Virus record (IMG/VR): IMGVR_UViG_3300025678_000001 | Source: a virus | Lineage: Duplodnaviria > Heunggongvirae > Uroviricota > Caudoviricetes | Length of the DNA: 64,000 bases | Reading direction: 5' to 3' (one strand) | Shown here: piece after piece, positions 28,973-55,530 of the stretch | Numbering within the stretch: the first letter of the stretch is position 1 | Layout: every line of letters starts with the position of its first letter | The notes under the pieces: model-generated | What the model was told of the DNA's origin: nothing | What the model saw: the letters and a program-made list of their open reading frames with translations, nothing else | Databases searched by the model: none | Translations under genes and position numbers: made by a program

Positions 28973-29485
28973 TTATTGATCGTACGCTAGGTTTTGTCCT
29001 CCGCGTACTGTGGAACTTTGTTCTTCTTTCAGATCTCGGTAAACTCCTTTGAAAGACTGACGTACCTGGTCAAATCGTTCAGCTATACGTAACAGAGCAG
29101 TAGCAGATCCATCACGGCCGGCAGTAGGTTTCTCGTTAGCCATGAAAGTGGCCATGTTATCAAGTGCTACCTTGATACCGTGATATGCCCTGTATGTAGG
29201 AGTTTCATAAAGCTTCCTGCATCTGAATAAACCTTCTTTGATAAGATCATCATCAGTAGAAAAGTCGGCATCAACCTCCTGTAAGATCATCTCTTCCTTA
29301 TCTTGTTCGGGTACATCAAAGAAGGGATTAAGATCCGGGTTAGGACAGGTCATATAGAACAAGTACGCATAGATCTTTAAGTGATCATCCGGATACTTGT
29401 CCATGATGTCTTTCAAAAACTTCAGTGTGTAACAGTGTTCGGTAGCTGTTACTTTTCCATTCTGTATATCAAATAGTCTTACCAT
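28973..29485 (-). CDS. hypothetical protein
   Basis: 170-aa ORF. Confidence 0.45.
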   Translation of the reverse strand: MVRLFDIQNGKVTATEHCYTLKFLKDIMDKYPDDHLKIYAYLFYMTCPNPDLNPFFDVPEQDKEEMILQEVDADFSTDDDLIKEGLFRCRKLYETPTYRAYHGIKVALDNMATFMANEKPTAGRDGSATALLRIAERFDQVRQSFKGVYRDLKEEQSSTVRGGQNLAYDQ

Positions 29486-29768
29486 GGGTGTTTTTACGCA
29501 TCTTCCTGCGTGTGGGTTTATTGGATCTTACTTTTTCAAAATACTTTCCTATAGCATCTTTGAAGTCGTCTAGCTTAAATTGTTTGTTATACGCCTGCTT
29601 GTTTCCTTCTTTCAACTGTTCATACAAGCCTTTATACCGGTTATCCAGCTCCTTTGCAATCATCTTTAGTCCTGTTGGACCTGTCATGATGCGTATTTGT
29701 CTTTCCATGTTTTCTTCTTCTGTTTTTCTTCTTCCTGGGTTCCGTTGTGATTCCGTTACTGACATCAA
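29469..29768 (-). CDS. small basic protein
   Basis: 99-aa K/R-rich ORF. Confidence 0.4.
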   Translation of the reverse strand: MMSVTESQRNPGRRKTEEENMERQIRIMTGPTGLKMIAKELDNRYKGLYEQLKEGNKQAYNKQFKLDDFKDAIGKYFEKVRSNKPTRRKMRKNTHGKTI

Positions 29769-29801
29769 GAAGTATAAAACTGTAACTCTCTAAAGGATCT
29801 T

Positions 29802-30740
29802 TCATGACTTAGGTTTGAGTTTATCTCTGTTATCTTCTAACCAGTGCATAAGAGAGATCACCTCTGCCTTAAGATAAGGAAGCTCATACTGGACAACATC
29901 TTTTACAATCGGATCTCCATTTGTATCCAGGGCAGTAATGGGGTTACCATACTTATCCTCTCCTACTGTATCAAAAAGTATATGGTGGATGATCAGCTTA
30001 CCTGGCTTTAACCTGGGATTATGTTTCAGGATCATATACATGTACAGAGAGAGCTGTAGATTATAATGATTCAGATTACAGTCATCCAGATGTCCTACTG
30101 GTGTCTGCATCTTTTGAGTGATACCTTCCCAGTTAGTATAGCCTTCTGTCTTGATCTCCTTATTTGTTTTGTAGTCTGTGATATGCACGACACCATTTAC
30201 CACCTCGACCAGGTCAGACTGTCCACATAGACCGGCAGACTTCAGATAAACCAAGTGTTCAGGATACACACCATCCTTAAGTTTTTGTTCCGGGGAATAT
30301 TTGATACCCTCTATCTCCACTGGTTTTATGATAGGGACTGATACACCATGGCGTTCTATTGTTTCCAGTTCACAGAGATCTCGTTCACGACAGTTATGGT
30401 ACCAGGTACCTAGTGTAGTAGCACGGTTGGCTTCAGATCTCCAGGCTTCTTTGATAGCCTCTGGAGTCATACCATACCATTTGCTTTTCTTGTTTTTGGA
30501 GCTTTTAAGAGCTATTGCATCAGCATCAAAGGGTTGTTTGAAGTTGGATATGAAACTGGTTACGGAAACCCAGTCCCGTTTATCTTCGTCCTTTATACTT
30601 GTGTACTTGTGATCTTGGGGTGTGAATCTTAGTATCATAGGTAAATCCGATTTGGTTTTTAACTGGTCGGCACTCAAGTACGTTGAGTATTTCATCGACC
30701 GAGTGGTAAGTAGCATAGAACTGGGCAGAGTATTTATCAA
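29802..30740 (-). CDS. putative PD-(D/E)XK-family nuclease
   Basis: 312-aa ORF with a GQSDLVEV...HITDYKTNK segment resembling a D...(D/E)xK catalytic core. Confidence 0.45.
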   Translation of the reverse strand: MINTLPSSMLLTTRSMKYSTYLSADQLKTKSDLPMILRFTPQDHKYTSIKDEDKRDWVSVTSFISNFKQPFDADAIALKSSKNKKSKWYGMTPEAIKEAWRSEANRATTLGTWYHNCRERDLCELETIERHGVSVPIIKPVEIEGIKYSPEQKLKDGVYPEHLVYLKSAGLCGQSDLVEVVNGVVHITDYKTNKEIKTEGYTNWEGITQKMQTPVGHLDDCNLNHYNLQLSLYMYMILKHNPRLKPGKLIIHHILFDTVGEDKYGNPITALDTNGDPIVKDVVQYELPYLKAEVISLMHWLEDNRDKLKPKS

Positions 30741-30972
30741 ATACCACCGACCTGGTTTTTGCTATCTTATGTTTAGAAGTCACATACTCCTCAATACTCA
30801 CGATCCCCTCTTTTCTTACCCACTTCTTTACCCGTAGCTGTTTAACCAGCTTTTGTTTCTTCACTGGAAAAAGATCACCCTCAGGCATTTTTTCAAACTC
30901 GATCTTTTCCTTGTAGACAGAGTGTATGACTTCTAGCTGTATGCTTTCGTTAGTGTGAACAACAGGCATCAA
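30580..30972 (-). CDS. hypothetical protein
   Basis: 130-aa basic ORF; its 3-prime end overlaps the downstream nuclease ORF, whose true start is probably an internal Met. Confidence 0.4.
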   Translation of the reverse strand: MMPVVHTNESIQLEVIHSVYKEKIEFEKMPEGDLFPVKKQKLVKQLRVKKWVRKEGIVSIEEYVTSKHKIAKTRSVVFDKYSAQFYATYHSVDEILNVLECRPVKNQIGFTYDTKIHTPRSQVHKYKGRR

Positions 30973-31352
30973 TAGCCGATTTTTTCTTTGAGTTTATCTT
31001 CTTCCTCTTCTGTAAGTTCAGCCTCCCACTTTTTTAGCGGACATGCTGATGAAAGACTTCTGGTCTTGAAATCCAGGGAGCATCCACAGCCTCCTTTTGT
31101 TGAGTCACAACAGGGATAAGTTCCCGGTACAACACAACCTTCAGAGTTATAGGTAAGAAGCTCACACTGCCGGCAGATTTGCATGCGTTCGTGAGCTATG
31201 TGTTCGACGTCTTCACGCTTGAACACGCTGTTCATTACTCCCTCAAGTATCTGACCCTTGTTCTTCCAGATCCTGATCAGGCTCTCCTTTAGTAACATAA
31301 CTGGTCTTTTTGTGTAGTTTAATAAACTCTGCTCGTTGGTTTTCTTCCTCAA
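30969..31352 (-). CDS. Cys-rich zinc-binding protein
   Basis: CRQCELLTYNSEGCVVPGTYPCCDSTKGGCGCS cluster. Confidence 0.45.
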   Translation of the reverse strand: MRKKTNEQSLLNYTKRPVMLLKESLIRIWKNKGQILEGVMNSVFKREDVEHIAHERMQICRQCELLTYNSEGCVVPGTYPCCDSTKGGCGCSLDFKTRSLSSACPLKKWEAELTEEEEDKLKEKIGY

Positions 31353-31662
31353 TGATCTTCTTAAGACTCTTCAGATCATAAAGTGTCTCTGCAGTTTTGA
31401 ACCTAGCCGTTATCTGCTGCAGACCTTTTAGTCTATTGGACTCTTCAAACTGTTCAAGCCTCATTATTTTTTCATCCAGTTTCCAGTGCTTTACTACGAA
31501 GTCACCGAGATTAGTGACATGTACGCGTGAGTGTTTCAAACCGGATAAAGCTTTCCGAACCTCCCTCCAGTAGTGATTGATGATGACCATTGCCACATCG
31601 GGTGAGATGTCTACTTCCGTAGCTACCTGGGGAACCAGGTCTTTAGCTTTGATTGGTCTCAA
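31243..31662 (-). CDS. hypothetical protein
   Basis: 139-aa ORF. Confidence 0.4.
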   Translation of the reverse strand: MRPIKAKDLVPQVATEVDISPDVAMVIINHYWREVRKALSGLKHSRVHVTNLGDFVVKHWKLDEKIMRLEQFEESNRLKGLQQITARFKTAETLYDLKSLKKIIEEENQRAEFIKLHKKTSYVTKGEPDQDLEEQGSDT

Positions 31663-32014
31663 CGCTTAGGAATTTATAGTCAAGCAGAATGTTACCTTTT
31701 GCATGGATCTTCAGTTCAGGGTTCAGATAGATCTTCTTCTTATTCTTACCCTCTTTCTTGATAAGGTTTTTCTTTTCTGCCTTTGTTAAACAGTTACGTA
31801 CAGACTGAGTGGATGAAAAGATTGCACTCTTTGAAGCATTGTTACAAAACTGGGTAAGCTCTTGCTCCCCACTTATTGCAAGCATGGTAAGACAGTTCAG
31901 ATCAGCCTCACTTACAGATATCTTGGTCAGGTAACAATGAGTCATCAGCTGGTACTTTACAATGTCCCAGAGATTCATTCTTACTCTTTTATCAACCTGG
32001 TTTACTAGTGCCAT
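31643..32014 (-). CDS. hypothetical protein
   Basis: 123-aa ORF. Confidence 0.45.
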   Translation of the reverse strand: MALVNQVDKRVRMNLWDIVKYQLMTHCYLTKISVSEADLNCLTMLAISGEQELTQFCNNASKSAIFSSTQSVRNCLTKAEKKNLIKKEGKNKKKIYLNPELKIHAKGNILLDYKFLSVETNQS

Positions 32015-32015
32015 G

Positions 32016-32447
32016 TTACAAATCCATTTTAAAAAACATGTAGTCTTCTCCTGTACCTCCCCAGTTTACATGCAGAACTACTGGTGTAGCTCCAAGGTTC
32101 TCGAAGATGTGCCAGCTCTTTCCTTTCCTGGCCTCTCCAGTTACATGCTTAAACCCAAACTCTTTAGCCCATTCCAGACCGGCTCTGACTATTTTGTAAC
32201 CAAGACCTTTTCCTTGAAAGGCCGGGAGTACAGTGAAACTGTCAATGTGAGCCACGTTATCACTCTCCCAGCTAAAAAGGATCTCAGCTACTATTTCAGA
32301 TCGGTCAACAAGCCAGATACCCTGAAACTTGTCTTCCTGGGTAAGCATGTACAACTTGTACTTATCATCCCATCGAAGCTCTTTGGGATGCTCGCGTTCA
32401 AACTTGAAAGTCTCTTTGTAGTCTTTGAGTTTGTACAGGATCTTCAT
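32016..32447 (-). CDS. GNAT-family N-acetyltransferase
   Basis: motif A FQGKGLGYKIVRAGLEWAKEFGF (Q/RxxGxG) in a 143-aa ORF. Confidence 0.7.
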   Translation of the reverse strand: MKILYKLKDYKETFKFEREHPKELRWDDKYKLYMLTQEDKFQGIWLVDRSEIVAEILFSWESDNVAHIDSFTVLPAFQGKGLGYKIVRAGLEWAKEFGFKHVTGEARKGKSWHIFENLGATPVVLHVNWGGTGEDYMFFKMDL

Positions 32448-32448
32448 A

Positions 32449-32844
32449 TTACTTTTTCAGTGTTCGTTCTTTTTTCTGCTCCTGCTCATTAGGGATGATC
32501 ACTTCCTCACCAACGGTTAATCCCATCTCAGCCAGTTCCGGATTGTTATCCAGATCTTCCTGGGTAATCTTATGAGGAGTTCCTCCCTGATAAGGATCCG
32601 GATCTGGTTTAGGGTTCGTGATCTGGGCAATAAAAGTCAACGCTTTTAGCTCCTCGGCCCTGGACACAGCTAAACGTGTGTTCAGATCCTGGAGCTCAAC
32701 CTGGACTTTTTTTACTTCGATCTGTTCTTGGAAAAACTTGAGGATTTCCTCCCTGGTAGGGGCAGTCTTTTCCTCGGTGGGAGTTACATTGTCCTTAGAC
32801 ATAGGGCGTGGGTTTTTTAGGTGTTTAGAAATTCGGGCTATCAT
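32449..32844 (-). CDS. hypothetical protein
   Basis: 131-aa ORF. Confidence 0.45.
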   Translation of the reverse strand: MIARISKHLKNPRPMSKDNVTPTEEKTAPTREEILKFFQEQIEVKKVQVELQDLNTRLAVSRAEELKALTFIAQITNPKPDPDPYQGGTPHKITQEDLDNNPELAEMGLTVGEEVIIPNEQEQKKERTLKK

Positions 32845-33118
32845 CTGACTCTACCCCATGGTAGGCCAGAAACTTATGTTCAAACTCTTCAAACGGAGTG
32901 TCAATGATCAGATGGTCGTCGTTCTTCATGAACAATGTGGTACATCCGCATGTCATCTCACCCTCATCATCTGAGGTAAGCTTAATACTTCTTACATCTT
33001 CCAAGAGAAACACAAAGTCCAGCCATTTACCTTTGTCGGTAATGTTCATGTCCTCAGCTTCTTTTGGATCCATGGAGTAGCAATGAAGCCTACACTTATG
33101 AAGCTTTAGAGTTTTCAT
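32825..33118 (-). CDS. hypothetical protein
   Basis: 97-aa ORF. Confidence 0.45.
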   Translation of the reverse strand: MKTLKLHKCRLHCYSMDPKEAEDMNITDKGKWLDFVFLLEDVRSIKLTSDDEGEMTCGCTTLFMKNDDHLIIDTPFEEFEHKFLAYHGVESDDSPNF

Positions 33119-33333
33119 TAGAGTACGGATTTGTTTTTCTTAGAAACATGGTACTGGTTATACCGCATATACTTGCTCTGGTTGGAGGCCTTGAGGATCT
33201 GGGTTGCCAGGGCACGTTCGGCTTCACCATCCCGGACATCTACTACGGGAACGTAGATCTTCTGTCCGTACTTATTTACAGTCTCTCTGAAATAGGATAA
33301 CTGGGTTTGATCGTCTAATGATTGGTTTTCCAT
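33118..33333 (-). CDS. hypothetical protein (first gene of the minus-strand operon)
   Basis: 71-aa ORF; the TTCTACAA-N7-TTGTAGAA dyad lies just upstream. Confidence 0.4.
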   Translation of the reverse strand: MENQSLDDQTQLSYFRETVNKYGQKIYVPVVDVRDGEAERALATQILKASNQSKYMRYNQYHVSKKNKSVL

Positions 33334-33381
33334 AGTGTAATAAGTTAAGGTTACAGTATAATATACTTAATAAGTTTAAAC

Positions 33382-33404
33382 TCTACAAATTTATCTTGTA
33401 GAAC
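33382..33404. promoter_or_regulatory. dyad operator TCTACAA-N7-TTGTAGA(AC) upstream of the structural operon and downstream of hxlR
   Basis: same half-sites and 7-nt spacer as the 6782 dyad. Confidence 0.45.
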
Positions 33405-33533
33405 TTATAAAAAGTACACAAACTTATACACTATGTGTGGATATGTAAGCGTTGAGGAAGTACAAAGAAAGCCGGTTACTTGGAGAGATGCAAGTACCCG
33501 GGCCCTAAATATCTTAGAGAGGTTAGGTGGTAA

Positions 33534-33920
33534 CTAGGCAGAAAGCTGTTCCTTTTCTAATAAGACAATGATGTCTTCTGGGAGATTGTGCTTCTTATGA
33601 TGCTTGTAGAAATAGTTCACCAGGGCTTTGTGGTAGACCTCCTGGGCATGCGTGAGAGGTTTGGTATCCTCATGAAGTTCATAGGTAACTTTTACCGGTA
33701 TGGTCTGGTACTGCTTTCGTACAACCAGCTCATATTCTTCCAGATCTTTTAAGGTCTCACTGAGGACTTTGACAGATATATCCGGGAGCTTGCGTTTGAG
33801 TTCAGAGAATCTCATGGGGCCCTGGCGTAGGTGCCAGATAACTACTGCTCTCCACTTTTTGCCCCACATCTCGGAGGCTAGGTTCATCAGGTAAGCTGCT
33901 AACATATGATTACAACACAA
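33534..33920 (-). CDS. HxlR-family winged-helix transcriptional regulator
   Basis: WGKKWRAVVIWHLRQGPMRFSELKRKLPDISVKVLSETLKDLEEYELVVRKQYQTIPVKVTYELHE matches the HxlR/DUF24 signature (WxxxILxxLxxGPxRFxEL...IxxKxLxxxLKxLExxGLVxR...P..VEYxLT). Confidence 0.8.
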   Translation of the reverse strand: MCCNHMLAAYLMNLASEMWGKKWRAVVIWHLRQGPMRFSELKRKLPDISVKVLSETLKDLEEYELVVRKQYQTIPVKVTYELHEDTKPLTHAQEVYHKALVNYFYKHHKKHNLPEDIIVLLEKEQLSA

Positions 33921-34048
33921 TAAACAAAACTCAGCAGTAGTAGTTGTCTTTAGAGTGGACTATTTCTCACTGAGGTAAGTAGATTACTAAGGGGTAATAC
34001 TTAGTAAAATTAATCAGTGTCAGCTTATATACAACTGATTCTTATCAG

Positions 34049-34120
34049 TTTCCTCCCCTGGGTACGATCCAGGAACTGCAGGGCCAAAACCTGCCGTGAT
34101 ACCAGTTTCACCAAAAGGAA
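34049..34120 (-). tRNA. tRNA-Gln(UUG)
   Basis: T-arm CCTGG/ATCGTAC/CCAGG, anticodon arm GCAGG-UUUUGGC-CCUGC, acceptor pairs with two GU. Confidence 0.6.
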
Positions 34121-34126
34121 ATAGTG

Positions 34127-34198
34127 GGTGTAAGGACGGTACCGACCCGTCTTCCCCAGGTCCACAACCTGGTGCATCACCTTAATGCTTCAAACACC
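34127..34198 (-). tRNA. tRNA-His(GUG)-like, encoded G-1/C73, two U-U mismatches in the acceptor stem
   Basis: anticodon arm CCAGG-UUGUGGA-CCUGG; T-arm GACGG/GTCGGTA/CCGTC; extra 5-prime G opposite C73. Confidence 0.45.
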
Positions 34199-34203
34199 AT
34201 AAG

Positions 34204-34275
34204 AGCCTTCTACCGGAACCGACCCGGTAAGTCCTGTTTACAAGACAGGCAGTTTTCCAGTTAGCTTAAGAAGGC
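34204..34275 (-). tRNA. tRNA-Thr(UGU)
   Basis: perfect 7-bp acceptor (GCCTTCT/AGAAGGC), T-arm ACCGG/GTCGGTT/CCGGT, anticodon loop CTTGTAA. Confidence 0.65.
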
Positions 34276-34280
34276 CTGTG

Positions 34281-34353
34281 TGGTACAGAGTGGTTACGAT
34301 CCACTTCCCCCGGTTTTTCAGACCGGTGCTTCTACCAAGTTAGCTTCTGCACC
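34281..34353 (-). tRNA. tRNA-Phe(GAA)
   Basis: T-arm AGTGG/ATCGTAA/CCACT, anticodon arm CCGGT-CTGAAAA-ACCGG, acceptor with one GU. Confidence 0.65.
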
Positions 34354-34428
34354 AAGTAGGACTTTGTCAAAGCCGGCCACTCCTGCACAAAGAGGAGACC
34401 AGCTTGATCAGGTGTCCTGAAACCTTTG

Positions 34429-34501
34429 AGGTGGGTGGGAAACTCGAAGCCCCGTATGACTGTTTTGCGGACAGTTGCCTTACCATCTTGGCGAACCCAC
34501 C
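34429..34501 (-). tRNA. tRNA-Cys(GCA)-like (C33, weak T-stem)
   Basis: acceptor GGTGGGT/ACCCACC, D-arm GCC-AAGATGGTAA-GGC, anticodon loop CCGCAAA, T-loop TTCGAGT. Confidence 0.4.
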
Positions 34502-34507
34502 ATGTTG

Positions 34508-34579
34508 TCTAGCTGATCTGGATCGAACAGACGTAATCTTGCTCCCAAAGCAAGTGCCTTACCGCTAGGCTACAGCTAG
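34508..34579 (-). tRNA. tRNA-Pro(UGG)
   Basis: acceptor CTAGCTG/CAGCTAG, D-arm GCC-TAGCGGTAA-GGC, anticodon arm CTTGC-TTTGGGA-GCAAG, T-loop TTCGATC. Confidence 0.7.
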
Positions 34580-34617
34580 AAAAAGAAAACCCCCAAACCG
34601 TTTTACCAGTCTGGGGG
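34578..34617 (-). terminator. rho-independent terminator (minus strand)
   Basis: CCCCCA...TGGGGG hairpin followed on the minus strand by TTTTCTTTTTCT. Confidence 0.5.
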
Positions 34618-34757
34618 TTAGTATTTTGATTTTGTACTTCTTAACTCGTTGCTATGATCACTGTACATACACCAACACAACTACCCCCGCAGACCGGACA
34701 AGGTTGCGTAAACTGGGTAAACTGTGTATGGGTAGTAATCTTCTTCATCTACAATAC

Positions 34758-34789
34758 AAAGATACTACTTTTTGTAGAACTACCAAAAT
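34758..34789 (-). promoter_or_regulatory. minus-strand promoter (-33 TTTTG, N19, -7 TATCTTTG) overlapping the TTGTAGAAC box
   Basis: reverse complement of caaagata (34758-65) and caaaa (34785-89); ~130 nt upstream of the 34578-34617 terminator. Confidence 0.45.
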
Positions 34790-34797
34790 CTTTTTGC

Positions 34798-34870
34798 ACG
34801 GGCCCAGGGAAACGATCCCTGTCCATCCGAGGTTTTGGAGACCTGGTGCATACCATTATGCTGGCCCATG
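34798..34870 (-). tRNA. tRNA-Trp(CCA)-like
   Basis: T-arm CAGGG/ATCGTTT/CCCTG; anticodon loop CTCCAAA with a 27-43 mismatch; acceptor with GU. Confidence 0.45.
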
Positions 34871-34875
34871 TATGT

Positions 34876-34959
34876 GGGAAGTGAGTGAGTCGAACACCCC
34901 GAGTCCGTAGACAGCTGGTTTACAATCAGCCCCGCTACCACTTACGGTATAACTTCCCC
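34876..34959 (-). tRNA. tRNA-Tyr(GUA), class II (long variable arm)
   Basis: acceptor GGGAAGT/ACTTCCC, anticodon loop TTGTAAA, T-arm GGGTG/TTCGACT/CACTC, 84 nt. Confidence 0.55.
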
Positions 34960-35040
34960 TATTTCGCATATCCAGTCAGTAGTCTTTCCGTCAAAAGCTA
35001 TCAACCAGAGTATGCCGTTCATATTAACGATGTACATGCA

Positions 35041-35123
35041 GAGAGCAGAGTAGTCGAAACCCACCCCGGTTAAGGAGCCCACTGTTTAGCAAACAGGTCT
35101 GACCACCTAGTCAGTTTACTCTC
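35041..35123 (-). tRNA. tRNA-Ser(GCU)-like, class II, T-arm poorly formed
   Basis: anticodon arm CCTGT-TTGCTAA-ACAGT, D-arm CTGAC-TAGGTG-GTCAG, acceptor GAGAGTA/TGCTCTC. Confidence 0.4.
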
Positions 35124-35129
35124 TAGATG

Positions 35130-35221
35130 CGGAAGGCAGAGGAACCGACCCCCATGCCCGTGTAAGGGGCAGCCTAGTTTTCAAGACTAGTCGCCACTCC
35201 AATGTAGCTGCATTACCTTCC
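35130..35221 (-). tRNA. tRNA-Ser(UGA), class II
   Basis: acceptor GGAAGGT/GCCTTCC, anticodon arm CTAGT-CTTGAAA-ACTAG, variable-arm hairpin, T-loop GTCGGTT. Confidence 0.6.
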
Positions 35222-35226
35222 ATGTA

Positions 35227-35313
35227 GTACCGGTGGAGGGGGATGATCCCACACGATCCTTTCGGATCACAAGATTTTAAGTCTTGCGTGTCTGCCTATT
35301 TCACCACACCGGC
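35227..35313 (-). tRNA. tRNA-Leu(UAA), class II
   Basis: anticodon arm CAAGA-CTTAAAA-TCTTG, variable-arm hairpin GATCC-GAAA-GGATC, acceptor GCCGGTG/CACCGGT. Confidence 0.55.
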
Positions 35314-35394
35314 AGTTGTCTGGACTCTCACCATAGCAGTCAGGGATTTCAGGTCCCCAGGTGTGCATTCAATTCGTCCCACCTTCTGACATCG

Positions 35395-35477
35395 TACCTC
35401 TGACAGGCCTCGAACCTGCACCCGTTTCCGGACTAGATCCTAAGTCTAGCGTGTCTCCCAAGTTTCACCACAGAGGT
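35395..35477 (-). tRNA. tRNA-Leu(UAG), class II
   Basis: perfect acceptor ACCTCTG/CAGAGGT, T-arm GCAGG/TTCGAGG/CCTGT, anticodon arm CTAGA-CTTAGGA-TCTAG. Confidence 0.65.
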
Positions 35478-35518
35478 ATAAAAACCAAAATCCCGACCAG
35501 GAAAACCTAATCGGGATT
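35478..35518 (-). terminator. rho-independent terminator (minus strand)
   Basis: 8-bp stem AATCCCGA/TCGGGATT followed on the minus strand by TTTGGTTTTTAT. Confidence 0.5.
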
Positions 35519-35673
35519 GGAAACTTTTTCAGTAACTACATACCTCACCCGATTGGTTTATGCAACCAATACAGACTGAGTGAGGATAGAGTAAACTGCT
35601 TCATAAAAATTTGGTGGATGGTCACCCCACTTGTTTTAATCTAAACAAGAAATCATCGGTCGGTTACGTTAAC

Positions 35674-35735
35674 TTCTCAGCTTGAACGCCTGTCGTGTGA
35701 CCTTTCAGCTTTCACGCCTGTTAAGAGGCTTTACC
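35674..35735. repeat. imperfect direct repeat CAGCTT(G/T)(A/C)ACGCCTGT x2, spaced 29 nt
   Basis: cagcttgaacgcctgt and cagctttcacgcctgt inside the short promoter-to-terminator unit. Confidence 0.35.
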
Positions 35736-35748
35736 GACCATCACAATA

Positions 35749-35780
35749 CAAATATACAACTCTTTTGGAGTTCTACAAAA
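35749..35780 (-). promoter_or_regulatory. minus-strand promoter (-33 TTTTG in TTTTGTAGAAC, N19, -7 TATATTTG)
   Basis: reverse complement of caaatata (35749-56) and caaaa (35776-80); transcribes a ~230-nt ORF-free segment ending at the 35478-35518 terminator. Confidence 0.45.
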
Positions 35781-35788
35781 TATTTTTG

Positions 35789-35864
35789 TGGAGACTCTGG
35801 AACTTGAATCCAGCTGATATCCTGCTTGCAAGGCAGGTGTCCACTCCTGGCAGACCCAGTCCCC
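35789..35864 (-). tRNA. tRNA-Ala(UGC)
   Basis: T-arm CTGGA/TTCAAGT/TCCAG, anticodon arm CCTGC-CTTGCAA-GCAGG. Confidence 0.6.
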
Positions 35865-35870
35865 ATGCTG

Positions 35871-35942
35871 TACTCTCGGGTGGTAACGATCCACCTACCT
35901 TCTCCGTATCAGGGAGCTACTCTACCATTGAGCTACGAGAGT
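35871..35942 (-). tRNA. tRNA-Ile(GAU)
   Basis: perfect acceptor ACTCTCG/CGAGAGT, T-arm GGTGG/ATCGTTA/CCACC, anticodon loop CTGATAC. Confidence 0.65.
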
Positions 35943-35947
35943 ATAAG

Positions 35948-36020
35948 TTGATCCGGGTGGGTACGATCCACCGACCTTGACGTTATGAGCGTCCTGCTAC
36001 TACCACTGAGCTACGGATCA
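35948..36020 (-). tRNA. tRNA-Met(CAU)
   Basis: perfect acceptor TGATCCG/CGGATCA, T-arm GGTGG/ATCGTAC/CCACC, anticodon loop CTCATAA. Confidence 0.6.
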
Positions 36021-36025
36021 GTATG

Positions 36026-36099
36026 CGGTCCGTACCGGGATCAAACCGGTCATCTCTGGCGTGACAAGCCAGCGTCTTCATCGTGCAGACCCACGGACC
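36026..36099 (-). tRNA. tRNA-Asp(GUC)
   Basis: perfect acceptor GGTCCGT/ACGGACC, T-arm ACCGG/TTTGATC/CCGGT, anticodon arm CTGGC-TTGTCAC-GCCAG. Confidence 0.7.
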
Positions 36100-36105
36100 A
36101 AATAG

Positions 36106-36180
36106 TACCCCCACCGGAGATCGAATCCGGTTCTTCACCGTGAAAGGGTGGCGTCCTGTACCTTCTAGACGATAGGGGCA
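36106..36180 (-). tRNA. tRNA-Glu(UUC)
   Basis: the sequence GCCCCTATCGTCTAGAAGGTACAGGACGCCACCCTTTCACGGTG...TTCGATC... closely parallels canonical bacterial tRNA-Glu. Confidence 0.65.
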
Positions 36181-36259
36181 AATTGGAGGCTTAGGACTCC
36201 ATCATCCTCCTTGAGATCCCGGCGTCCTTCTACTTTTTATAGTACGGATCTCTTTTACG

Positions 36260-36331
36260 AGCAGCATCTCGGGGTCGATCCGAGTTCTCCGGTTTGGAAG
36301 ACCGGCACATCAGCCCTAATGCTTATGCTGC
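36260..36331 (-). tRNA. tRNA-Gly(UCC)
   Basis: perfect acceptor GCAGCAT/ATGCTGC, T-arm CTCGG/ATCGACC/CCGAG, anticodon arm CCGGT-CTTCCAA-ACCGG. Confidence 0.7.
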
Positions 36332-36445
36332 ATGAAAGAACAGAGCTCCAGGGGAATCTCACCCGTCTGTCCGGAACAGACCTCACTGCCTTTTACTATG
36401 TACGGTATTTACTCGTACACAACAGCTACCTGAAGATGATCTTGG

Positions 36446-36515
36446 TTGCGGGGCCGGGATTTGAACCCGGGAAACACGGCTTATGAGACCGGTCGGCCAC
36501 CTGGCTCCCCACAAT
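36446..36515 (-). tRNA. tRNA-like gene, anticodon arm unresolved
   Basis: canonical T-arm CCGGG/TTCAAAT/CCCGG and acceptor pairing TGTGGGG/CCCCGCA, but the interior is 2 nt short of a standard cloverleaf. Confidence 0.3.
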
Positions 36516-36522
36516 AAAACTG

Positions 36523-36595
36523 CGGACTCTCCGGGGAACGATCCTGGAACCTTCACCTTAACAGGGTGCCGCTCTACCAGTTGAGCTAAGAGTCC
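36523..36595 (-). tRNA. tRNA-Asn(GUU)
   Basis: perfect acceptor GGACTCT/AGAGTCC, D-arm AGCTCAACTGGTAGAGCG, anticodon loop CTGTTAA, T-loop ATCGTTC. Confidence 0.7.
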
Positions 36596-36596
36596 G

Positions 36597-36668
36597 TATA
36601 CTTAGAAGGATTCCAACCTTCACTTTCAGTTTAGAAGACTGACGTGCTAAGCATTACACCATAAGTAC
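36597..36668 (-). tRNA. tRNA-Arg(UCU)
   Basis: T-arm GAAGG/TTGGAAT/CCTTC, anticodon arm TCAGT-CTTCTAA-ACTGA. Confidence 0.65.
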
Positions 36669-36676
36669 ATATCTGG

Positions 36677-36747
36677 AAGACCCGGAGGTAGTCGAAACCC
36701 CATCATCACGTTCGTAGCGTGATATCCTTCCATTGAACGACGGGTCC
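36677..36747 (-). tRNA. tRNA-Arg(ACG)
   Basis: acceptor GGACCCG/CGGGTCT, T-arm GGGGT/TTCGACT/ACCTC, anticodon arm TCACG-CTACGAA-CGTGA. Confidence 0.65.
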
Positions 36748-36802
36748 TTGTTAAGACCGTCTTCGGTAATATGTACTGTAGTGTGTCATGTCTTCTGTCT
36801 GG

Positions 36803-36876
36803 TAGCTCCTATCCGGGTCGAACGGATGCATTCTCGGTATGTAACACCGAAGCTCTACCACCTGAGCTAAGGAGCT
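36803..36876 (-). tRNA. tRNA-Val(UAC)
   Basis: perfect acceptor AGCTCCT/AGGAGCT, D-arm TAGCTCAGGTGGTAGAGCT, T-arm ATCCG/TTCGACC/CGGAT, anticodon loop GTTACAT. Confidence 0.7.
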
Positions 36877-36882
36877 ATTTGA

Positions 36883-36932
36883 AGCTCATTATTGAGCTTG
36901 AATGAGCTGAATATTGAGCTTAATCGGCTCAT
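36883..36932. promoter_or_regulatory. palindromic operator AGCTCA-N4-TGAGCT plus three phased TGAGCT half-sites
   Basis: AGCTCATTATTGAGCT at 36883-98; TGAGCT again at 36903, 36915; GGCTCA at 36927; lies between tRNA-Val and tRNA-Lys. Confidence 0.4.
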
Positions 36933-36940
36933 ATATCTTG

Positions 36941-37012
36941 TTCCCCCGTCCGGTAACGATCCGGACCCCACGGATTAAAAGTCCGTTGCCTACACCTGTT
37001 TGCTACGAGGGA
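36941..37012 (-). tRNA. tRNA-Lys(UUU)
   Basis: T-arm TCCGG/ATCGTTA/CCGGA, anticodon arm ACGGA-CTTTTAA-TCCGT, acceptor with one GU. Confidence 0.65.
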
Positions 37013-37050
37013 AAATAAAAAACCCCGGTAGCTGGTGCTCCGGGGTTCTT
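37011..37050. terminator. bidirectional hairpin terminator (strong T-tract on the minus strand)
   Basis: CCCCGG-N11-CCGGGG hairpin flanked by AAAATAAAAAA on one side and TTCTTGTTATCTT on the other. Confidence 0.5.
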
Positions 37051-37194
37051 GTTATCTTAAACTTACTTCTAGTTATCCTAGATCAGTACAGACAAATGAA
37101 CCCACGGAGCGTACCTTCTCATCCGCTCTGCGTTCCATAATGCCTATATTGACTGTAAGTAACATTTGCTGTGTAATAGTTTTATGTAGATCTC

Positions 37195-37235
37195 TGACCT
37201 ACAATACAAATATACGTTAGTTCTACAACATGACC
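37195..37235 (-). promoter_or_regulatory. conserved CTACAATACAAATATAC / GTTCTACAA box (candidate minus-strand promoter at the head of the tRNA array)
   Basis: -7-like TATATTTG on the minus strand (reverse complement of 37207-14) adjacent to GTTCTACAA. Confidence 0.4.
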
Positions 37236-37239
37236 AAAT

Positions 37240-37738: not shown

Positions 37739-37932
37739 TTCTGACCCTTTTTGGTATTGGAGCCCGGGTAAGCCTCGTTGAGTACTATCATCTTCTTAAG
37801 CTCATCTCTGTGTACCCACTGTACCTTACCCACCGCGGCATAGTACTTCCAGGCCATCTCATCCTGGGGGAGATCACCATTCTTATACAGCTCGACCACA
37901 CAAGCCAGGTCTGTATAGACTACTTCACTCAT
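37735..37932 (-). CDS. hypothetical small protein
   Basis: 65-aa ORF in a tightly packed array. Confidence 0.35.
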   Translation of the reverse strand: MSEVVYTDLACVVELYKNGDLPQDEMAWKYYAAVGKVQWVHRDELKKMIVLNEAYPGSNTKKGQK

Positions 37933-38326
37933 TGGGATTAAGTTTTAAAAGTCGATCCGGATCAAATCCCCTGGTGGCAAATGCCTTGAACGTCTCAGCG
38001 TACTTGGGGGTCTCAGTTCTCTGAGGCATACCGTAGGTCTCCCCAGCCTGTACACAGAGAGCTGCTATCTTTCGTAGAAACTCCATGGTATACTGGTGTG
38101 GTACCGATCCCTTATACCATGCCTCTAATGCTTTGTTCAGGTTATACTGAATTGCAGTGATGGTATCTCCAACATGCAGGTCCTGGATCATATCCGGCCT
38201 GGTCGGGTCAGCTATCATCTTTTCCTGGAAGTCACGCTCGGTGTCAATCACCTTATAGACTTCTTCTCTGGTCATAACGGTCGGTTTTTGGTAGACCGGT
38301 TCAAGATCCTGATAGGTTGTATTCAT
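37925..38326 (-). CDS. hypothetical protein
   Basis: 133-aa ORF, last minus-strand gene before the divergent control region. Confidence 0.5.
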   Translation of the reverse strand: MNTTYQDLEPVYQKPTVMTREEVYKVIDTERDFQEKMIADPTRPDMIQDLHVGDTITAIQYNLNKALEAWYKGSVPHQYTMEFLRKIAALCVQAGETYGMPQRTETPKYAETFKAFATRGFDPDRLLKLNPNE

Positions 38327-38736: not shown

Positions 38737-38973
38737 ATGGAGAAGAATCAAACACCGCTGAACAGCATCGCGCTGACTACCTTCAAACAACTGAACGGTA
38801 TTGACAAGATTTCCGTAAACAAGGGTGACGGACGCATGTTTGCGGACACCGTTGCGGGACGCCTCTACTTCGCGGAGAAGGTGGACCTGAATAAACCCCT
38901 GTTCGTGGCCAAGGGTCAGTACGACAGTTACTGGGTATTCAACCAGAACGTGAAACAGGTGGCAGAGCTTTAA
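38737..38973 (+). CDS. hypothetical protein (first plus-strand gene)
   Basis: 78-aa ORF downstream of the divergent intergenic region. Confidence 0.4.
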   Translation: MEKNQTPLNSIALTTFKQLNGIDKISVNKGDGRMFADTVAGRLYFAEKVDLNKPLFVAKGQYDSYWVFNQNVKQVAEL

Positions 38974-49825: not shown

Positions 49826-50013
49826 TCTGATACTGAGAGCTAGTAAGTAATCTATGGGGAAGTCCGTCGAACAGTTTTTCACTTAGTACCGTCCCCGTGT
49901 GATAATAGGCGTAGCCGGTCTGGGAACCGTGCATAAACCCAGTAGATCCACTCGAAGTAGTGTGAAAGCTATCCTCAGTATAGACCTTGGCTTGGAACAC
50001 TTGTGCCAGTAAA

Positions 50014-50086
50014 CAGGTGTACTCAGGGAGTAGCTCAGATAGGAGAGCATCCGGGCGACCCCCGGAAGGTCGGTGGTGCAAGTCCA
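50014..50086 (+). ncRNA. degenerate tRNA-like element
   Basis: canonical D-arm TAGCTCAGATAGGAGAGCA and T-stem GGTGG/CCACC, acceptor 6 of 7 pairs, but anticodon loop GCGACCC (C33) and T-loop TGCAAGT are non-canonical. Confidence 0.3.
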
Positions 50087-50113
50087 CCCTTCCTAACTAA
50101 ACCAAAGAAACCT

Positions 50114-50914
50114 ATGAGTTACGCCATTAAACTTTTATTCTTTTTAGGTAGTTGTATTCTTGCATTTGTAGCCGGTAGGCTTACAAGCAGTCTGTCTTAC
50201 CACTGGAGTCAAGTGGATGGGCCGAATCAGGCCGTTATAGTTTCACCCAATGACAGTACCACACAAGTCAACGGTTTGGTACAGGGTGTCTATCATTTTG
50301 AGTTAGCAGTTACCGACCCTCAAGGAGCTACAGGACGGGATACCATGATGGTTACCGTACTTCCTGGAGTTCTTCCTATCAAACTGGTTTACTTCAAAGC
50401 GTACCCGCTGGCTGATGTAAACATGATCAAGTGGAAAACATCTGAAGAGATAAACATAAAAGAGTTTATCCTGGAATCCTCTACAGACGGTGTTCATTTT
50501 TACGGTCTCTATCATACGTTTGCTATCGGAGCTACACCAACCTCTCCTTCTGAGTATGACTATGAACATAAGTTCCCAGGAAGAGAGCAGTATTACAGAC
50601 TTAAGTCTATTGAGACATCTGGTACTTATACATACAGTGATGTTGTAAAAGTAACCAGATCTATTTCGACATCTATTTGGTCAAACAACCCTGTTACATC
50701 GACTCTTAATGTTACCATAAACGTAGATAATGCTACTACAGCTAACTTCTACATTTATGATGCTACCGGAAGAAGAATGGCATTCTATACGTACAATCTA
50801 AGTCCTGGTAAGAACAGTTTCAGTTATCATACTGGTCAGTATGCTTCTGGTCTGTATATCATTAAAGTTGACGTAGGAGGTATTATCTCAACCAAAAAAT
50901 TCGTCAAACAATGA
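50114..50914 (+). CDS. secreted protein with Ig/PKD-like domain and a Type IX secretion system C-terminal sorting domain
   Basis: signal peptide MSYAIKLLFFLGSCILAFVAG; C-terminus ...NSFSYHTGQYASGLYIIKVDVGGIISTKKFVKQ matches the Por/T9SS CTD pattern; the ORF-track start at 50003 is rejected because it lies within a tRNA-like element. Confidence 0.65.
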   Translation: MSYAIKLLFFLGSCILAFVAGRLTSSLSYHWSQVDGPNQAVIVSPNDSTTQVNGLVQGVYHFELAVTDPQGATGRDTMMVTVLPGVLPIKLVYFKAYPLADVNMIKWKTSEEINIKEFILESSTDGVHFYGLYHTFAIGATPTSPSEYDYEHKFPGREQYYRLKSIETSGTYTYSDVVKVTRSISTSIWSNNPVTSTLNVTINVDNATTANFYIYDATGRRMAFYTYNLSPGKNSFSYHTGQYASGLYIIKVDVGGIISTKKFVKQ

Positions 50915-55498: not shown

Positions 55499-55530
55499 TT
55501 TGTAGAACTCCTAAAAAAGTTCTATATTTG
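55499..55530 (+). promoter_or_regulatory. Bacteroidetes-type promoter (-33 TTTG within TTTGTAGAAC, N20, -7 TATATTTG) driving the tmRNA-like gene
   Basis: TTTG at 55499-55502, TATATTTG at 55523-55530, RNA 5-prime GGGCCCG at 55540. Confidence 0.5.

Follow-up and report, generated by a model that had tools for sequence, protein, structure and literature searches.

The question raised by this locus is whether a dense run of tRNA genes with unusual T-loops constitutes a working phage tRNA set, and what those T-loops signify. The window, the whole 64,000-nt stretch of viral DNA that was analysed, contains 24 cloverleaf tRNA genes at 34048–37012 when ARAGORN and Rfam predictions are combined, all on the minus strand, as is the structural operon, and spanning 2,965 bp. 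Default ARAGORN predicts 17 of these and no tRNA genes elsewhere in the 64 kb. Rfam RF00005 gives 17 matches at the gathering score and a focused search gives 22 within the tRNA clan, adding seven genes to the default ARAGORN set (His, Cys, Glu, a second CAU tRNA, Ser(UGA), Ser(GCU), and Tyr) and missing those for Ala and Trp. The best-scoring model for Ser(UGA), Ser(GCU), and Tyr is tRNA-Sec, at 32, 31.8, and 21.3 bits, respectively. Relaxed ARAGORN (-ps90) recovers 23 of the 24 genes, the last being Ser(UGA), for which the minimum-free-energy structure is a class II cloverleaf. An earlier note made from the sequence alone had proposed a minus-strand array of about 24 tRNAs, and the count bears this out; its amino-acid list is also correct, including a queried Cys (GCA), as are the long variable arms it described in the class II tRNAs Tyr, both Ser, and both Leu. 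The one gene its list leaves unnamed is an initiator-like CAU tRNA (36446–36513). All 20 amino acids are covered in addition to this initiator-like tRNA, and identity elements such as G3:U70 (Ala), G-1/C73 (His), and the class II form (Tyr, Ser, Leu) are found. Only three genes encode CCA, and intergenic spacers within sub-clusters are 0–8 nt.

The array consists of three sub-clusters, each preceded by a strong terminator-like hairpin. The features below are all on the minus strand, are listed in its 5' to 3' direction, and the tRNAs were predicted by both ARAGORN and Rfam unless stated. Upstream of the first unit lie a Bacteroidetes-type promoter motif (TTTG-N20-TAnnTTTG; 37207–37238), a short ORF or leader (MERRADEKVRSVGSFVCTDLG; 37073–37138) read from the sequence and sharing its stop with a gene caller ORF, and a hairpin (37021–37047) whose U-tract ends at 37013, one base ahead of tRNA-Lys. 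The promoter motif and hairpin are kept in L201, a related phage, while the leader differs there through in-frame indels. The unit opens with tRNA-Lys(UUU) (36940–37012; T-loop ATCGTTA; Rfam 38 bits), tRNA-Val(UAC) (36800–36876; TTCGACC), and tRNA-Arg(ACG) (36674–36747; TTCGACT, with U53:A61), the latter two encoding CCA. tRNA-Arg(UCU) (36596–36668; TTGGAAT, D-loop aatGCtta; Rfam 65 bits) follows and is separated by 0 nt from tRNA-Asn(GUU) (36522–36595; ATCGTTC). The initiator-like tRNA, supported by Rfam at 30.2 bits, relaxed ARAGORN, and its fold, encodes CCA and has a canonical T-loop (TTCAAAT), a D arm reduced to 3 bp with a 4-nt loop, and a weak anticodon stem; this gene may be in decay. 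Its L201 orthologue has an A54/U58 T-loop and a GGG:CCC anticodon stem, and the orthologue's body, this stem included, is presumably near-identical to E. coli tRNA-fMet.

The remainder of the first sub-cluster comprises tRNA-Gly(UCC) (36259–36331; ATCGACC, kept in L201), tRNA-Glu(UUC) (36105–36179; TTCGATC, with A53:U61; Rfam 48.6 bits and relaxed ARAGORN), tRNA-Asp(GUC) (36025–36099; TTTGATC, D-loop gcacGAtga), and a tRNA(CAU) (35947–36020; ATCGTAC), which would be Ile2 if lysidinylated and elongator Met otherwise. tRNA-Ile(GAU) (35870–35942) has the T arm GGTGG-ATCGTTA-CCACC, fitting a pattern that retrieves a tRNA-Ile(GAU) group common across viral contigs. tRNA-Ala(UGC) (35788–35864; TTCAAGT, with A53:U61), predicted by ARAGORN, ends the unit. 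Immediately past it are a second promoter motif (35749–35779; kept in L201), a short ORF or leader (MKQFTLSSLSLYWLHKPIG; 35545–35604), and a 13-bp hairpin with U-tract (35489–35518; equivalent in L201) that lies immediately 5' of tRNA-Leu(UAG) (35394–35477; TTCGAGG). This second sub-cluster continues with tRNA-Leu(UAA) (35227–35313; ATCATCC), tRNA-Ser(UGA) (35131–35221; GTCGGTT; Rfam Sec model and fold), for which the L201 orthologue is 83% identical, tRNA-Ser(GCU) (35038–35124; TTCGACT; Rfam Sec model and ARAGORN -ps90), tRNA-Tyr(GUA) of bacterial type (34874–34957; TTCGACT; relaxed ARAGORN and fold), and tRNA-Trp(CCA) (34796–34869; ATCGTTT; ARAGORN). A third promoter motif (34757–34787) immediately past tRNA-Trp is followed by a 35-aa ORF with a CPxC...C..C motif (34641–34748), conserved at the protein level in L201, and a 13-bp hairpin with U-tract (34588–34619), conserved there in structure but not in sequence. 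The hairpin lies immediately 5' of tRNA-Pro(UGG) (34507–34579; TTCGATC; Rfam 61.9 bits), which precedes tRNA-Cys(GCA) (34428–34501; TTCGAGT; Rfam 45.2 bits and relaxed ARAGORN), tRNA-Phe(GAA) (34280–34353; ATCGTAA), tRNA-Thr(UGU) (34203–34275; GTCGGTT, kept in L201), tRNA-His(GUG) (34126–34197; GTCGGTA; Rfam 33 bits and relaxed ARAGORN), and tRNA-Gln(UUG) (34048–34120; ATCGTAC). Phe, Thr, and Gln are further supported by Infernal alignment, and tRNA-His has G-1 with C73 and an acceptor stem interrupted by two U-U mismatches. No recognisable promoter was found between the terminator-like hairpin and the tRNAs at any of the three sub-clusters.

T-loop classes were read from ARAGORN structures and Infernal alignments, which uphold the many nTCGTnn loops described previously. 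Half of the array (12/24) departs from the near-universal U54/A58: eight tRNAs are A54/U58 (ATCGTnn or ATCATCC; Lys, Asn, Met, Ile, Leu(UAA), Trp, Phe, and Gln), three are G54/G58 (GTCGGTn; Ser(UGA), Thr, and His), and Gly alone is A54/A58 (ATCGACC). The other 12 T-loops are UUCRAnn-like. Two tRNAs also carry a matched 19:56 swap, Arg(UCU) with C19:G56, which is kept in L201, and Asp with A19:U56. Across the window and L201 arrays the 54/58 pairs number 20 UA, 15 AU, and 9 other, with 95.5% pairing in the T stem. By comparison, 2,412 other phage tRNAs include 2216 UA, 116 AU, 45 AA, and 12 GG, with all others at 8 or fewer; A54 is accompanied by U58 in 116 tRNAs, by A58 in 45, and by G or C in four, while U54 occurs with U58 only once. 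Positions 54 and 58 thus covary. The A54:U58 share is 33% against 4.8% in other phage arrays, a roughly 7-fold enrichment, and non-canonical pairs of any type make up ~8% in those arrays.

L201 carries the same tRNAs in unchanged order, although the proteins flanking the array are just 35–76% identical between the two phages. This comparison bears on whether most of the genes are pseudogenes or tRNA-like relics whose odd T-loops are simply damage. Such a reading could draw on the seven genes missed by default ARAGORN, the low Rfam scores (30–38 bits) of the initiator-like, His, and Lys tRNAs, the unmatched Ala and Trp, and the stunted D arm of the initiator-like tRNA. However, among 420 stem pairs compared with L201, 286 are unchanged, 13 changed on one side, 99 compensatory, and only 22 broken. 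Both phages retain a full anticodon set, the two sides of the 19:56 pair change together, and the covariation of 54 and 58 is not that of independent decay. Wholesale decay is disfavoured and very improbable, and the array genes appear from their sequences to be functional. Some members may nonetheless be decaying, given the degraded initiator, the His mismatches, and the 6-nt T-loop of L201 Leu(UAG).

The T-loop style had been regarded as phage-specific and as a mark of shared phage lineage, neither of which is upheld. A54:U58 occurs in single chromosomal tRNAs of several bacterial lineages, namely the tRNA-Lys adjoining gyrA in a Reyranella chromosome, tRNA-His of Kiritimatiellia and Lentisphaerae, tRNA-Met of Spirochaetales, and tRNA-Gly (Gly-CCC) of Bacteroidales. 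It is also present in tRNA-Met of a Segatella copri assembly, in arrays on Chryseolinea and Cyclobacteriaceae contigs, and in two cultured phages among those examined. As some of these are housekeeping chromosomal tRNAs, normal translation can proceed with the variant. As a lineage mark it fails because orthologues switch between U:A and A:U; the window and L201 differ by three such swaps, at Gln (TTCGATT in L201), Trp (TTCAAAT in L201), and the initiator-like tRNA, and by one of G:G to A:A, at His (ATCGATA in L201). With the T and D stems set aside, the A:U-type tRNAs also resemble each other no more than random array tRNAs do. It is the density of the trait that is unusual, while the variant itself is found in bacteria and other phages.

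The Bacteroidota examples would also fit tRNA genes taken up recently from a host with this T-loop style. Against this, the colinear array lies in a relative with highly diverged proteins, and cellular cases involve one isoacceptor per lineage (Lys, His, Met, or Gly-CCC) whereas viral cases are chiefly Ile(GAU), Asn, and Asp. The bacterial loci compared gave generic tRNA similarity to the array and nothing more, and recent capture is highly unlikely. The earlier proposal of long residency in phages is therefore supported by the colinear L201 array and the compensatory changes, but not by T-loop style.

The genomic setting agrees with the previously suggested phage origin, large genome, and Bacteroidetes host. 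The window encodes a portal, a large terminase, and a major capsid protein matching Pfam Crass_capsid, and an identical sequence is found on a 133,468-bp contig, making this a crAss-like phage of ~133 kb. One ORF has a T9SS sorting domain and the Bacteroidetes-type promoter motif has 6 matches against 1.2 expected; the host is probably a member of the Bacteroidota. The array lies upstream of the terminase gene, and the layout of array, small genes, TerL, portal, and MCP is common to Bacteroides phage crAss001. The crAss001 array sits at the matching position, yet its T-loops are nearly all canonical; its Ser(UGA) loop, GTCGGGA, resembles the GTCGGTT described here. Eleven syntenic relatives have no array, which is therefore dispensable in some hosts and would best be described as an accessory island.

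Phage tRNAs are classically thought to supply codons common in the phage and ill-served by the host (PMC10264068, PMC6409571). The GC3 range of the clade, 0.14 to 0.61, implies varied hosts and favours this account, as does heavy phage use of U- and C-ending codons in four-codon boxes. However, the set is uniform, with one tRNA per codon box and U34 in seven of eight four-codon boxes (ACG for Arg). As every box and amino acid receives one tRNA, including Trp and Met where there is no codon choice, particular codons are not targeted. Allowing for U34 superwobble, the set covers 59 of 61 sense codons and 98.6% of phage codon usage, compared with 45 of 61 under strict wobble; CGG (13% of Arg codons) and AUA (16% of Ile codons) are left uncovered. 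Near relatives of equal GC3 (L001–L005, 0.525–0.53 vs. 0.512 in the phage) also lack the array in both cases with enough flank to judge, L004 and L005. Codon-usage compensation is consequently rather unlikely, and the chances are about even that the uniform set instead reflects a general tRNA supply.

A different proposal is that remodelled elbows, meaning non-U54/A58 loops, swapped 19:56 pairs, and non-G53:C61 pairs, hide phage tRNAs from some host or competitor factor recognising the canonical T-loop, for instance a tRNase cutting in that loop or a decay pathway that depends on modification. In another version the phage would encode a nuclease against host tRNAs, and the altered elbows would spare its own. 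Cleavage inside the T-loop is known for a Burkholderia CdiA-CT toxin. The extreme density of non-canonical loops, their presence in the related L201 array, and the alteration of several distinct elbow contacts are in line with such evasion, and the high densities reached in unrelated phages of other GC content, such as L159 at 61% GC, fit recurrent selection. Loop mutations are also published as letting phage tRNAs evade anticodon nucleases (PMC10264068) and phage tRNAs as neutralising PARIS (PMC11464382), although both concern anticodon loops and T-loops go unmentioned in PMC10264068. Conversely, just half of the tRNAs are altered, the A:U-type members form no clear functional class, and the same variant is fixed in bacterial housekeeping tRNAs. 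Reversion to U54:A58 in Gln and Trp (L201) and the initiator-like tRNA (window) is unexpected under constant selection, and no tRNA nuclease or repair gene was recognised among 30 window ORFs compared with PHROGs or Pfam. Evasion of this kind is doubtful, though an adaptive cause of the T-loop variation is possible.

The locus is an element of an ordinary kind with an under-described structural twist, and we consider it quite likely to be a working accessory tRNA island in which alternative 54:58 pairs covary. The array would be transcribed as polycistronic precursors, cut by host RNase P and 3' processing enzymes, completed by the host CCA-adding enzyme, and charged by host synthetases. The odd T-loops would form alternative 54:58 tertiary pairs in the tRNA elbow (A54-U58, G54-G58, and A54-A58), replacing U54-A58; in this lineage the match at 54:58 is still constrained while base identity is no longer fixed. 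Relaxed constraint is the likeliest cause, at about even odds, since phage tRNAs may do without the U54- and A58-dependent modifications and the quality control by which cellular tRNAs are held canonical, but alone it leaves the ~7-fold excess of A54:U58 unaccounted for. The phage would gain a nearly host-independent decoding set during mass production of virion protein.

The minus strand carries a tRNA array of 24 genes at 34048–37012, which agrees with the count of about 24 made in the earlier note from the sequence alone. Automated prediction, the check proposed there, gives 17 genes in the 64-kb window with ARAGORN defaults, all on the minus strand within these limits, and 23 with relaxed settings. 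The Rfam tRNA model (RF00005) has 17 matches at gathering score in the array and a focused run yields 22 matches to the tRNA clan (CL00001). Each method misses different genes, and the 24 cloverleaves are the union of the two. ARAGORN defaults miss seven (His, Cys, Glu, Tyr, both Ser, and the second CAU tRNA) and Rfam misses Ala and Trp, both of which ARAGORN defaults find. Ser(UGA) at 35131–35221, the one gene that relaxed ARAGORN leaves out, is folded by minimum free energy into a class II cloverleaf, and its orthologue in a related phage contig (L201) is 83% identical. The amino acid identities assigned earlier are all correct, including a queried Cys (GCA).

The genes form clusters of 12, 6, and 6 with intergenic spacers of 0–8 nt. 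In minus-strand order the first contains Lys-UUU, Val-UAC, Arg-ACG, Arg-UCU, Asn-GUU, an initiator-like CAU tRNA, Gly-UCC, Glu-UUC, Asp-GUC, Met-CAU, Ile-GAU, and Ala-UGC; the second Leu-UAG, Leu-UAA, Ser-UGA, Ser-GCU, Tyr-GUA, and Trp-CCA; and the third Pro-UGG, Cys-GCA, Phe-GAA, Thr-UGU, His-GUG, and Gln-UUG. In all 24 the acceptor stem is 7 bp long, a D arm is present, an anticodon stem of 5 bp closes a 7-nt loop containing U33, and the T stem, also of 5 bp, closes a further 7-nt loop, except that the initiator-like D arm is reduced and Trp has one nucleotide at positions 8–9. The Rfam gathering threshold of 29 bits is reached by 19 of the 24, and three class II tRNAs match the Sec model alone, at 21–32 bits against a cut-off of 47. 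Identity elements are in place, as Ala has G3:U70, His has G-1/C73, and Tyr, Ser, and Leu are class II. CCA is encoded by Val, Arg-ACG, and the initiator-like gene only.

Each cluster follows the same arrangement. Minus-strand promoter motifs at 37238, 35779, and 34787 are followed by short ORFs of 21, 19, and 35 aa, whose counterparts in L201 differ by in-frame indels. After each ORF stands a strong minus-strand hairpin with a U-tract (37021–37047, 35489–35518, and 34588–34619) that runs straight into the first tRNA of the cluster. The arrangement as a whole is kept in L201, where one of the hairpins is retained by structure rather than sequence, and is absent from crAss001. No promoter was found between hairpin and tRNA at any of the three sub-clusters, so transcription of the tRNAs would involve read-through, antitermination, or a polymerase that ignores the hairpin. 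The layout suggests control of tRNA expression by read-through or antitermination. The 35-aa ORF (34641–34748, minus strand; MKKITTHTQFTQFTQPCPVCGGSCVGVCTVIIATS) has a CPxC...C..C motif and is probably a real small zinc-ribbon-like protein, given its conservation at the protein level in L201.

L201 (metagenome contig Ga0209990_10000472) is the one true relative of the array that the searches found and contains the IMG/VR fragment L170. Exact searches with tRNA-derived patterns returned L170 only from IMG/VR and L201 only from metagenomes; as both are the same phage, they amount to one independent relative. Searching IMG/VR with the flanking ORF 37925–38326 found no others, and the search for cultured-phage homologues of the window tRNA-Ile gave weak partial matches only. 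L201 is colinear with window 29171–37238 at 68–92% nucleotide identity, and its neighbouring proteins are 35–76% identical. Its array has the tRNAs of the window in identical order with an additional Lys-CUU. Across 21 orthologous pairs with 420 stem base pairs, 286 pairs are unchanged, 13 have changed on one side and 99 on both sides with pairing kept, and 22 are broken in one of the two phages. T-stem cells in the two arrays are 95.5% paired. This compensatory pattern is what selection on structure leaves behind, and it is not the mark of pseudogenes.

Individual members of the array may nonetheless be decaying, namely Leu-UAG in L201, which has a T-loop of 6 nt, and the initiator-like gene in the window. 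The latter has a D stem of 3 bp and a D-loop of 4 nt, with the acceptor and T arm kept. The hallmarks of a bacterial initiator are a CAU anticodon, a 1:72 pair that is weak or mismatched, and an anticodon stem with three G:C pairs in a row. In the window gene the anticodon stem reads C-U, C:G, G:C, G:C, U-G. The L201 orthologue has a GGG:CCC anticodon stem and U1:A72, and its body is close to that of E. coli tRNA-fMet.

The unusual nTCGTnn T-loops described in the earlier note are real. ARAGORN structures and Infernal alignment to the Rfam consensus locate the differences at positions 54 and 58, where canonical tRNAs have a reverse-Hoogsteen pair of U54 and A58. This combination is absent from 12 of the 24 tRNAs. 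It is replaced by A54/U58 in eight (Lys, Asn, Met, Ile, Leu-UAA, Trp, Phe, and Gln), by G54/G58 in three (Ser-UGA, Thr, and His), and by A54/A58 in Gly, with A54/A58 found in Gly, Glu, and His of L201. Other contacts of the elbow vary as well. The D-loop G18 G19 facing U55 C56 is canonical in 22 of the 24, and matched 19:56 changes occur in Arg-UCU (C19:G56) and Asp (A19:U56). G53:C61 is replaced or lost in five window T arms, being A:U or U:A in Arg-ACG, Glu, Ala, and Ser-GCU and a mismatch in Cys; when the window and L201 are taken together, seven of 44 distinct T arms are affected. As a side observation, the whole window contains 464 GATC sites compared to ~242 expected from base composition; each A54-type T arm (GGATCG) contributes one.

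tRNA biology takes U54 and A58 to be invariant, and gene-finding programs depend on them. Elbow variation also explains part of the under-calling by automated finders. Only two of the seven genes missed by ARAGORN defaults (His and Ser-UGA) are non-canonical at 54/58, so other departures from the cloverleaf contribute to missed genes too.

Positions 54 and 58 do not vary independently. Among the 44 distinct T arms, 20 have U:A, 15 have A:U, and nine have other combinations (G:G, A:A, A:G). Between the window and L201, a full switch between U:A and A:U is seen in Gln, Trp, and the initiator-like tRNA, and a switch between G:G and A:A in His. Double changes at 54:58 number five in 23 orthologues, compared to 27 in 105 T-stem pairs, so the 54:58 pair changes about as often as an ordinary T-stem pair. 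The covariation and the switching between orthologues indicate that this lineage has released the identity of the two bases but still keeps them matched. For the A:U-type tRNAs, a common origin by duplication was rejected. Their identity outside the T and D stems is 0.377 within the group and 0.377 across all pairs (p = 0.48), so the shared style is not a trace of recent duplication, with the T and D stems alone somewhat more alike among the A:U-type tRNAs of the window.

The same covariation extends to other viruses. For comparison, 2,412 tRNAs predicted in other viral arrays were used after removal of those carrying the search patterns. The 54/58 combination is U/A in 2216, A/U in 116, A/A in 45, and G/G in 12, with every further combination found eight times or fewer. 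U58 is paired with A54 116 times and with U54 once.

The earlier note regarded this T-loop style as phage-specific, which does not hold, as A54:U58 also occurs in bacterial chromosomal tRNAs and cultured phages. A scan of one prokaryotic genome per species for a pattern that joins a common D arm to GGATCGT, placed where the T-loop lies, returned at least 120 loci. Among the matches listed, ARAGORN predicts a tRNA in 113 loci, of which 73 hold a single tRNA. The prokaryotic cases listed form lineage-wide sets: tRNA-His in Kiritimatiellia, Lentisphaerae, and Verrucomicrobia (PVC bacteria); tRNA-Met in Spirochaetales; tRNA-Gly(CCC) in Bacteroidales; and tRNA-Lys(UUU) in the alphaproteobacterial Reyranella and Aestuariivirga as well as in Gemmatimonadota and candidate phyla radiation bacteria. 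Housekeeping bacterial tRNAs with A54:U58 are among loci L202–L281 of the retrieved set, including a tRNA-Lys between gyrA and an ABC transporter on the 6.2-Mb Reyranella chromosome NZ_OZ252257.1 (L264 2330–2404). Viral contigs with the same pattern are, among the matches listed, mostly arrays of at least 10 tRNAs, and their isoacceptors (Ile-GAU 50, Asn 20, and Asp 19 among the matches listed) differ from the prokaryotic ones. The T arm of the window tRNA-Ile, GGTGG-ATCGTnn-CCACC, is that of widespread viral tRNA-Ile(GAU) genes. A group of these with the T arm GGTGG-ATCGTTC-CCACC and an encoded CCA was observed in at least 50 large arrays on unrelated contigs (L081–L199 and L322 onward), and bacterial tRNA-Ile(GAU) with the viral-type loop was observed, among the matches listed, only inside multi-tRNA clusters. 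Among cultured phages, Bacillus phage Hobo has a single A54:U58 tRNA (Phe), as does Aeromonas phage PX29 (Lys).

The special trait of the array is the density of its non-canonical T-loops. In the window 33% of the tRNAs are A:U and 50% are non-canonical in total, compared to 4.8% and ~8% in other viral arrays and one in 18 and one in 20 non-canonical tRNAs in Hobo and PX29, respectively. High density as a trait of Bacteroidota phages was rejected, as the Bacteroides phage crAss001 is canonical and the dense array L159 has 61% GC and lacks the Bacteroidetes promoter motif. No proteins common to the window and L159 or other dense loci were found. Annotated GenBank records contain the A54-U58 T-loop, but no paper of the library searched names it under any spelling. 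Its presence in phages of unrelated groups and in housekeeping tRNAs of several bacterial lineages shows A54-U58 to be a natural alternative that recurs and covaries, as G-G and A-A do more rarely.

The array is carried by a phage that appears to be crAss-like, with MCP, portal, and large terminase (TerL) genes in the conserved order. The MCP matches Pfam PF23898 (Crass_capsid), and the portal and TerL match PHROG families. The best GenBank matches of TerL are all from Crassvirales or other Bacteroidota phages at 24–26% identity, and it has hundreds of environmental relatives at 70–85% identity. Sequence identical to the window is found in a 133,468-bp ENA contig and a JGI contig, and the identical TerL on 14 contigs, ERZ764804 and JGI 3300009716 among them. 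We infer a Bacteroidota host from a T9SS sorting domain and the promoter motif. The ORF at 50003–50914 (plus strand) encodes a PKD-like domain together with a C-terminal sorting domain of the T9SS type (Por_Secre_tail), a Bacteroidota marker that is phage-borne here, and the motif TTTG-N18-22-TAnnTTTG occurs six times compared to 1.2 expected.

The array lies at the head of a leftward structural operon and is followed by small genes, TerL, portal, and MCP. To place it among TerL relatives, 80 loci were retrieved (L001–L080) and 20 were scanned with ARAGORN, including all 11 with a full 10 kb upstream. In the 20 scanned relatives no array was detected near TerL, at most a single Leu or Cys tRNA. 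The 11 are syntenic through the small-gene block upstream of TerL and none has the array, so the covariation analysis does not draw on them; in three, synteny reaches the gene of the HxlR-type winged-helix regulator that lies directly downstream of the array in the window (33534–33920, minus strand). In relative L061 a homologue of window ORF 38737–38973 lies immediately next to the HxlR gene. By this synteny the array is accessory. A GNAT acetyltransferase gene (32016–32447, minus strand) lies 1.6 kb further on from the regulator, and since both genes are also present in array-less relatives, neither is tied to the array. GC3 within the TerL clade spans 0.14–0.61 at 70–85% protein identity, implying a wide range of host base compositions in one phage group. 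Another phage relative (L445), matched via an AAA ATPase gene, contains a group I intron at 4476–4692 (Rfam 85.5 bits).

Two further RNA genes lie on the plus strand of the window. A phage tmRNA of 659 nt at 55540–56198 scores 60.7 bits against Rfam RF00023 (cut-off 47) and is not called by ARAGORN. It has two large unaligned inserts, G3:U70, and a tag reading frame ending ...AILASIFVDEAVAA-stop. Its promoter at 55499–55530, TTTGTAGAACT...TATATTTG, is of the same type as those of the tRNA array. No tmRNA was detected at gathering score in 11 related loci. The second is a tRNA-like gene of 120 nt at 54691–54810 (Rfam tRNA 46.2 bits) with canonical acceptor, D, and T arms. The 54 nt inside its anticodon stem, CCGGG/CCCGG, yield no anticodon loop of 7 nt with U33, and the insert reads CCGAUGAG...CGAAAC. 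The ARAGORN intron model of a Cys tRNA with a 28-nt intron is unconvincing. A hammerhead reading of CCGAUGAG...CGAAAC was rejected as the flanks pair with each other and there is no Rfam ribozyme match, and a YrlA-like reading was dropped on topology. A search for relatives of this gene found none.

The array itself is one more example of the well-known phage tRNA arrays, and resembles viral tRNA clusters in general (PMC6409571). The closest likeness in layout is to crAss001 (Kehishuvirus primarius, MH675552), a crAss-like phage of a Bacteroidota host whose structural operon likewise begins with a single block of ~24 tRNA genes and interspersed short ORFs, followed by small genes, TerL, portal, and MCP. 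Its Ser(UGA) T-loop is likewise G54/G58. However, 23 of its 24 T-loops are canonical UUCRAnn and none is A:U, it has its own Ile(UAU) and duplicate isoacceptors, and no hairpin with a U-tract precedes its tRNA clusters. The window TerL is also only ~25% identical to GenBank Crassvirales TerL. The clusters of large virulent phages (T5, T4-like phages, and Herelleviridae) are similarly dense and polycistronic, cover most or all amino acids, and have occasional A54:U58 members, but Hobo and PX29 each have one non-canonical tRNA, compared to 12 of 24 together with 19:56 swaps here. With its 24 genes packed into 2,965 bp (8.1 per kb), the array also falls within the prokaryotic tRNA array unit, defined as at least 20 tRNA genes at a minimum of two per kb (PMC4758250), although it lies on a phage genome rather than a chromosome or plasmid. 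Bacterial array contigs of Ramlibacter, Chryseolinea, Cyclobacteriaceae, and Chloroflexales share A54:U58 members. A precedent for a different 54:58 geometry exists beyond prokaryotes. The T-loop of eukaryotic initiator tRNA has A54, A60, and an A54-A58 pair (see also PMC10602860). Here too U54 is replaced, as in A54/A58 Gly of the window and Gly, Glu, and His of L201, but that tRNA belongs to another domain of life with a dedicated role in initiation, and the dominant variant in the phage is A54/U58.

The composition of the set bears on its function. Minimal decoding sets such as those of Mycoplasma, plastids, and mitochondria use U34 superwobble. Like these, the array has one U34 tRNA per four-codon box and ~23 elongators for all amino acids, although it would supplement a full host set rather than replace it. 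By strict wobble 45 of the 61 sense codons are read, rising to 59 with U34 superwobble, in which case 98.6% of phage codon usage is covered and CGG and AUA are left out. It is proposed that the array would be transcribed polycistronically with the late operon, that host enzymes would process the tRNAs and add CCA, and that host synthetases would charge them. The tRNAs would then act as a general supply during virion protein synthesis, and translation may continue when host tRNAs are limiting or attacked, situations in infection discussed in PMC10264068 and PMC11464382. The earlier note instead proposed compensation for a codon-usage mismatch with the host. This ranks below general supply because of the uniformity of the set, in which even Trp and Met, amino acids without codon choice, are represented. 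Furthermore, array-less relatives have the same GC3, hence the presence of the array does not track a shift in GC3.

For the elbow variants, the favoured explanation is relaxed constraint on base identity with pairing retained. They could alternatively be an adaptive disguise that lets phage tRNAs escape, by a route other than the anticodon, a host factor tuned to the canonical T-loop, for instance a nuclease, a checkpoint-like modification enzyme, or a decay pathway, with A54-U58 a general, so far undescribed, phage-enriched alternative tRNA architecture. The release of 54:58 identity together with rewiring of the 19:56 and 53:61 contacts is in keeping with such a disguise. It is nevertheless improbable, and is weakened by the alteration of no more than half of the tRNAs, by reversion in orthologues, and by the occurrence of this variant in housekeeping tRNAs of cells. 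The paper on phage tRNAs that evade anticodon nucleases makes no mention of T-loops (PMC10264068).

Relaxed constraint and disguise aside, tRNAs without U54 or A58 cannot carry m5U54 or m1A58, making them natural test cases for those modifications and their enzymes. With this array, a complete set of one tRNA per box from a distant lineage of environmental crAss-like phages joins the known phage tRNA arrays, and its elbow variants could bear on how phage tRNAs evade tRNA-targeting defences.
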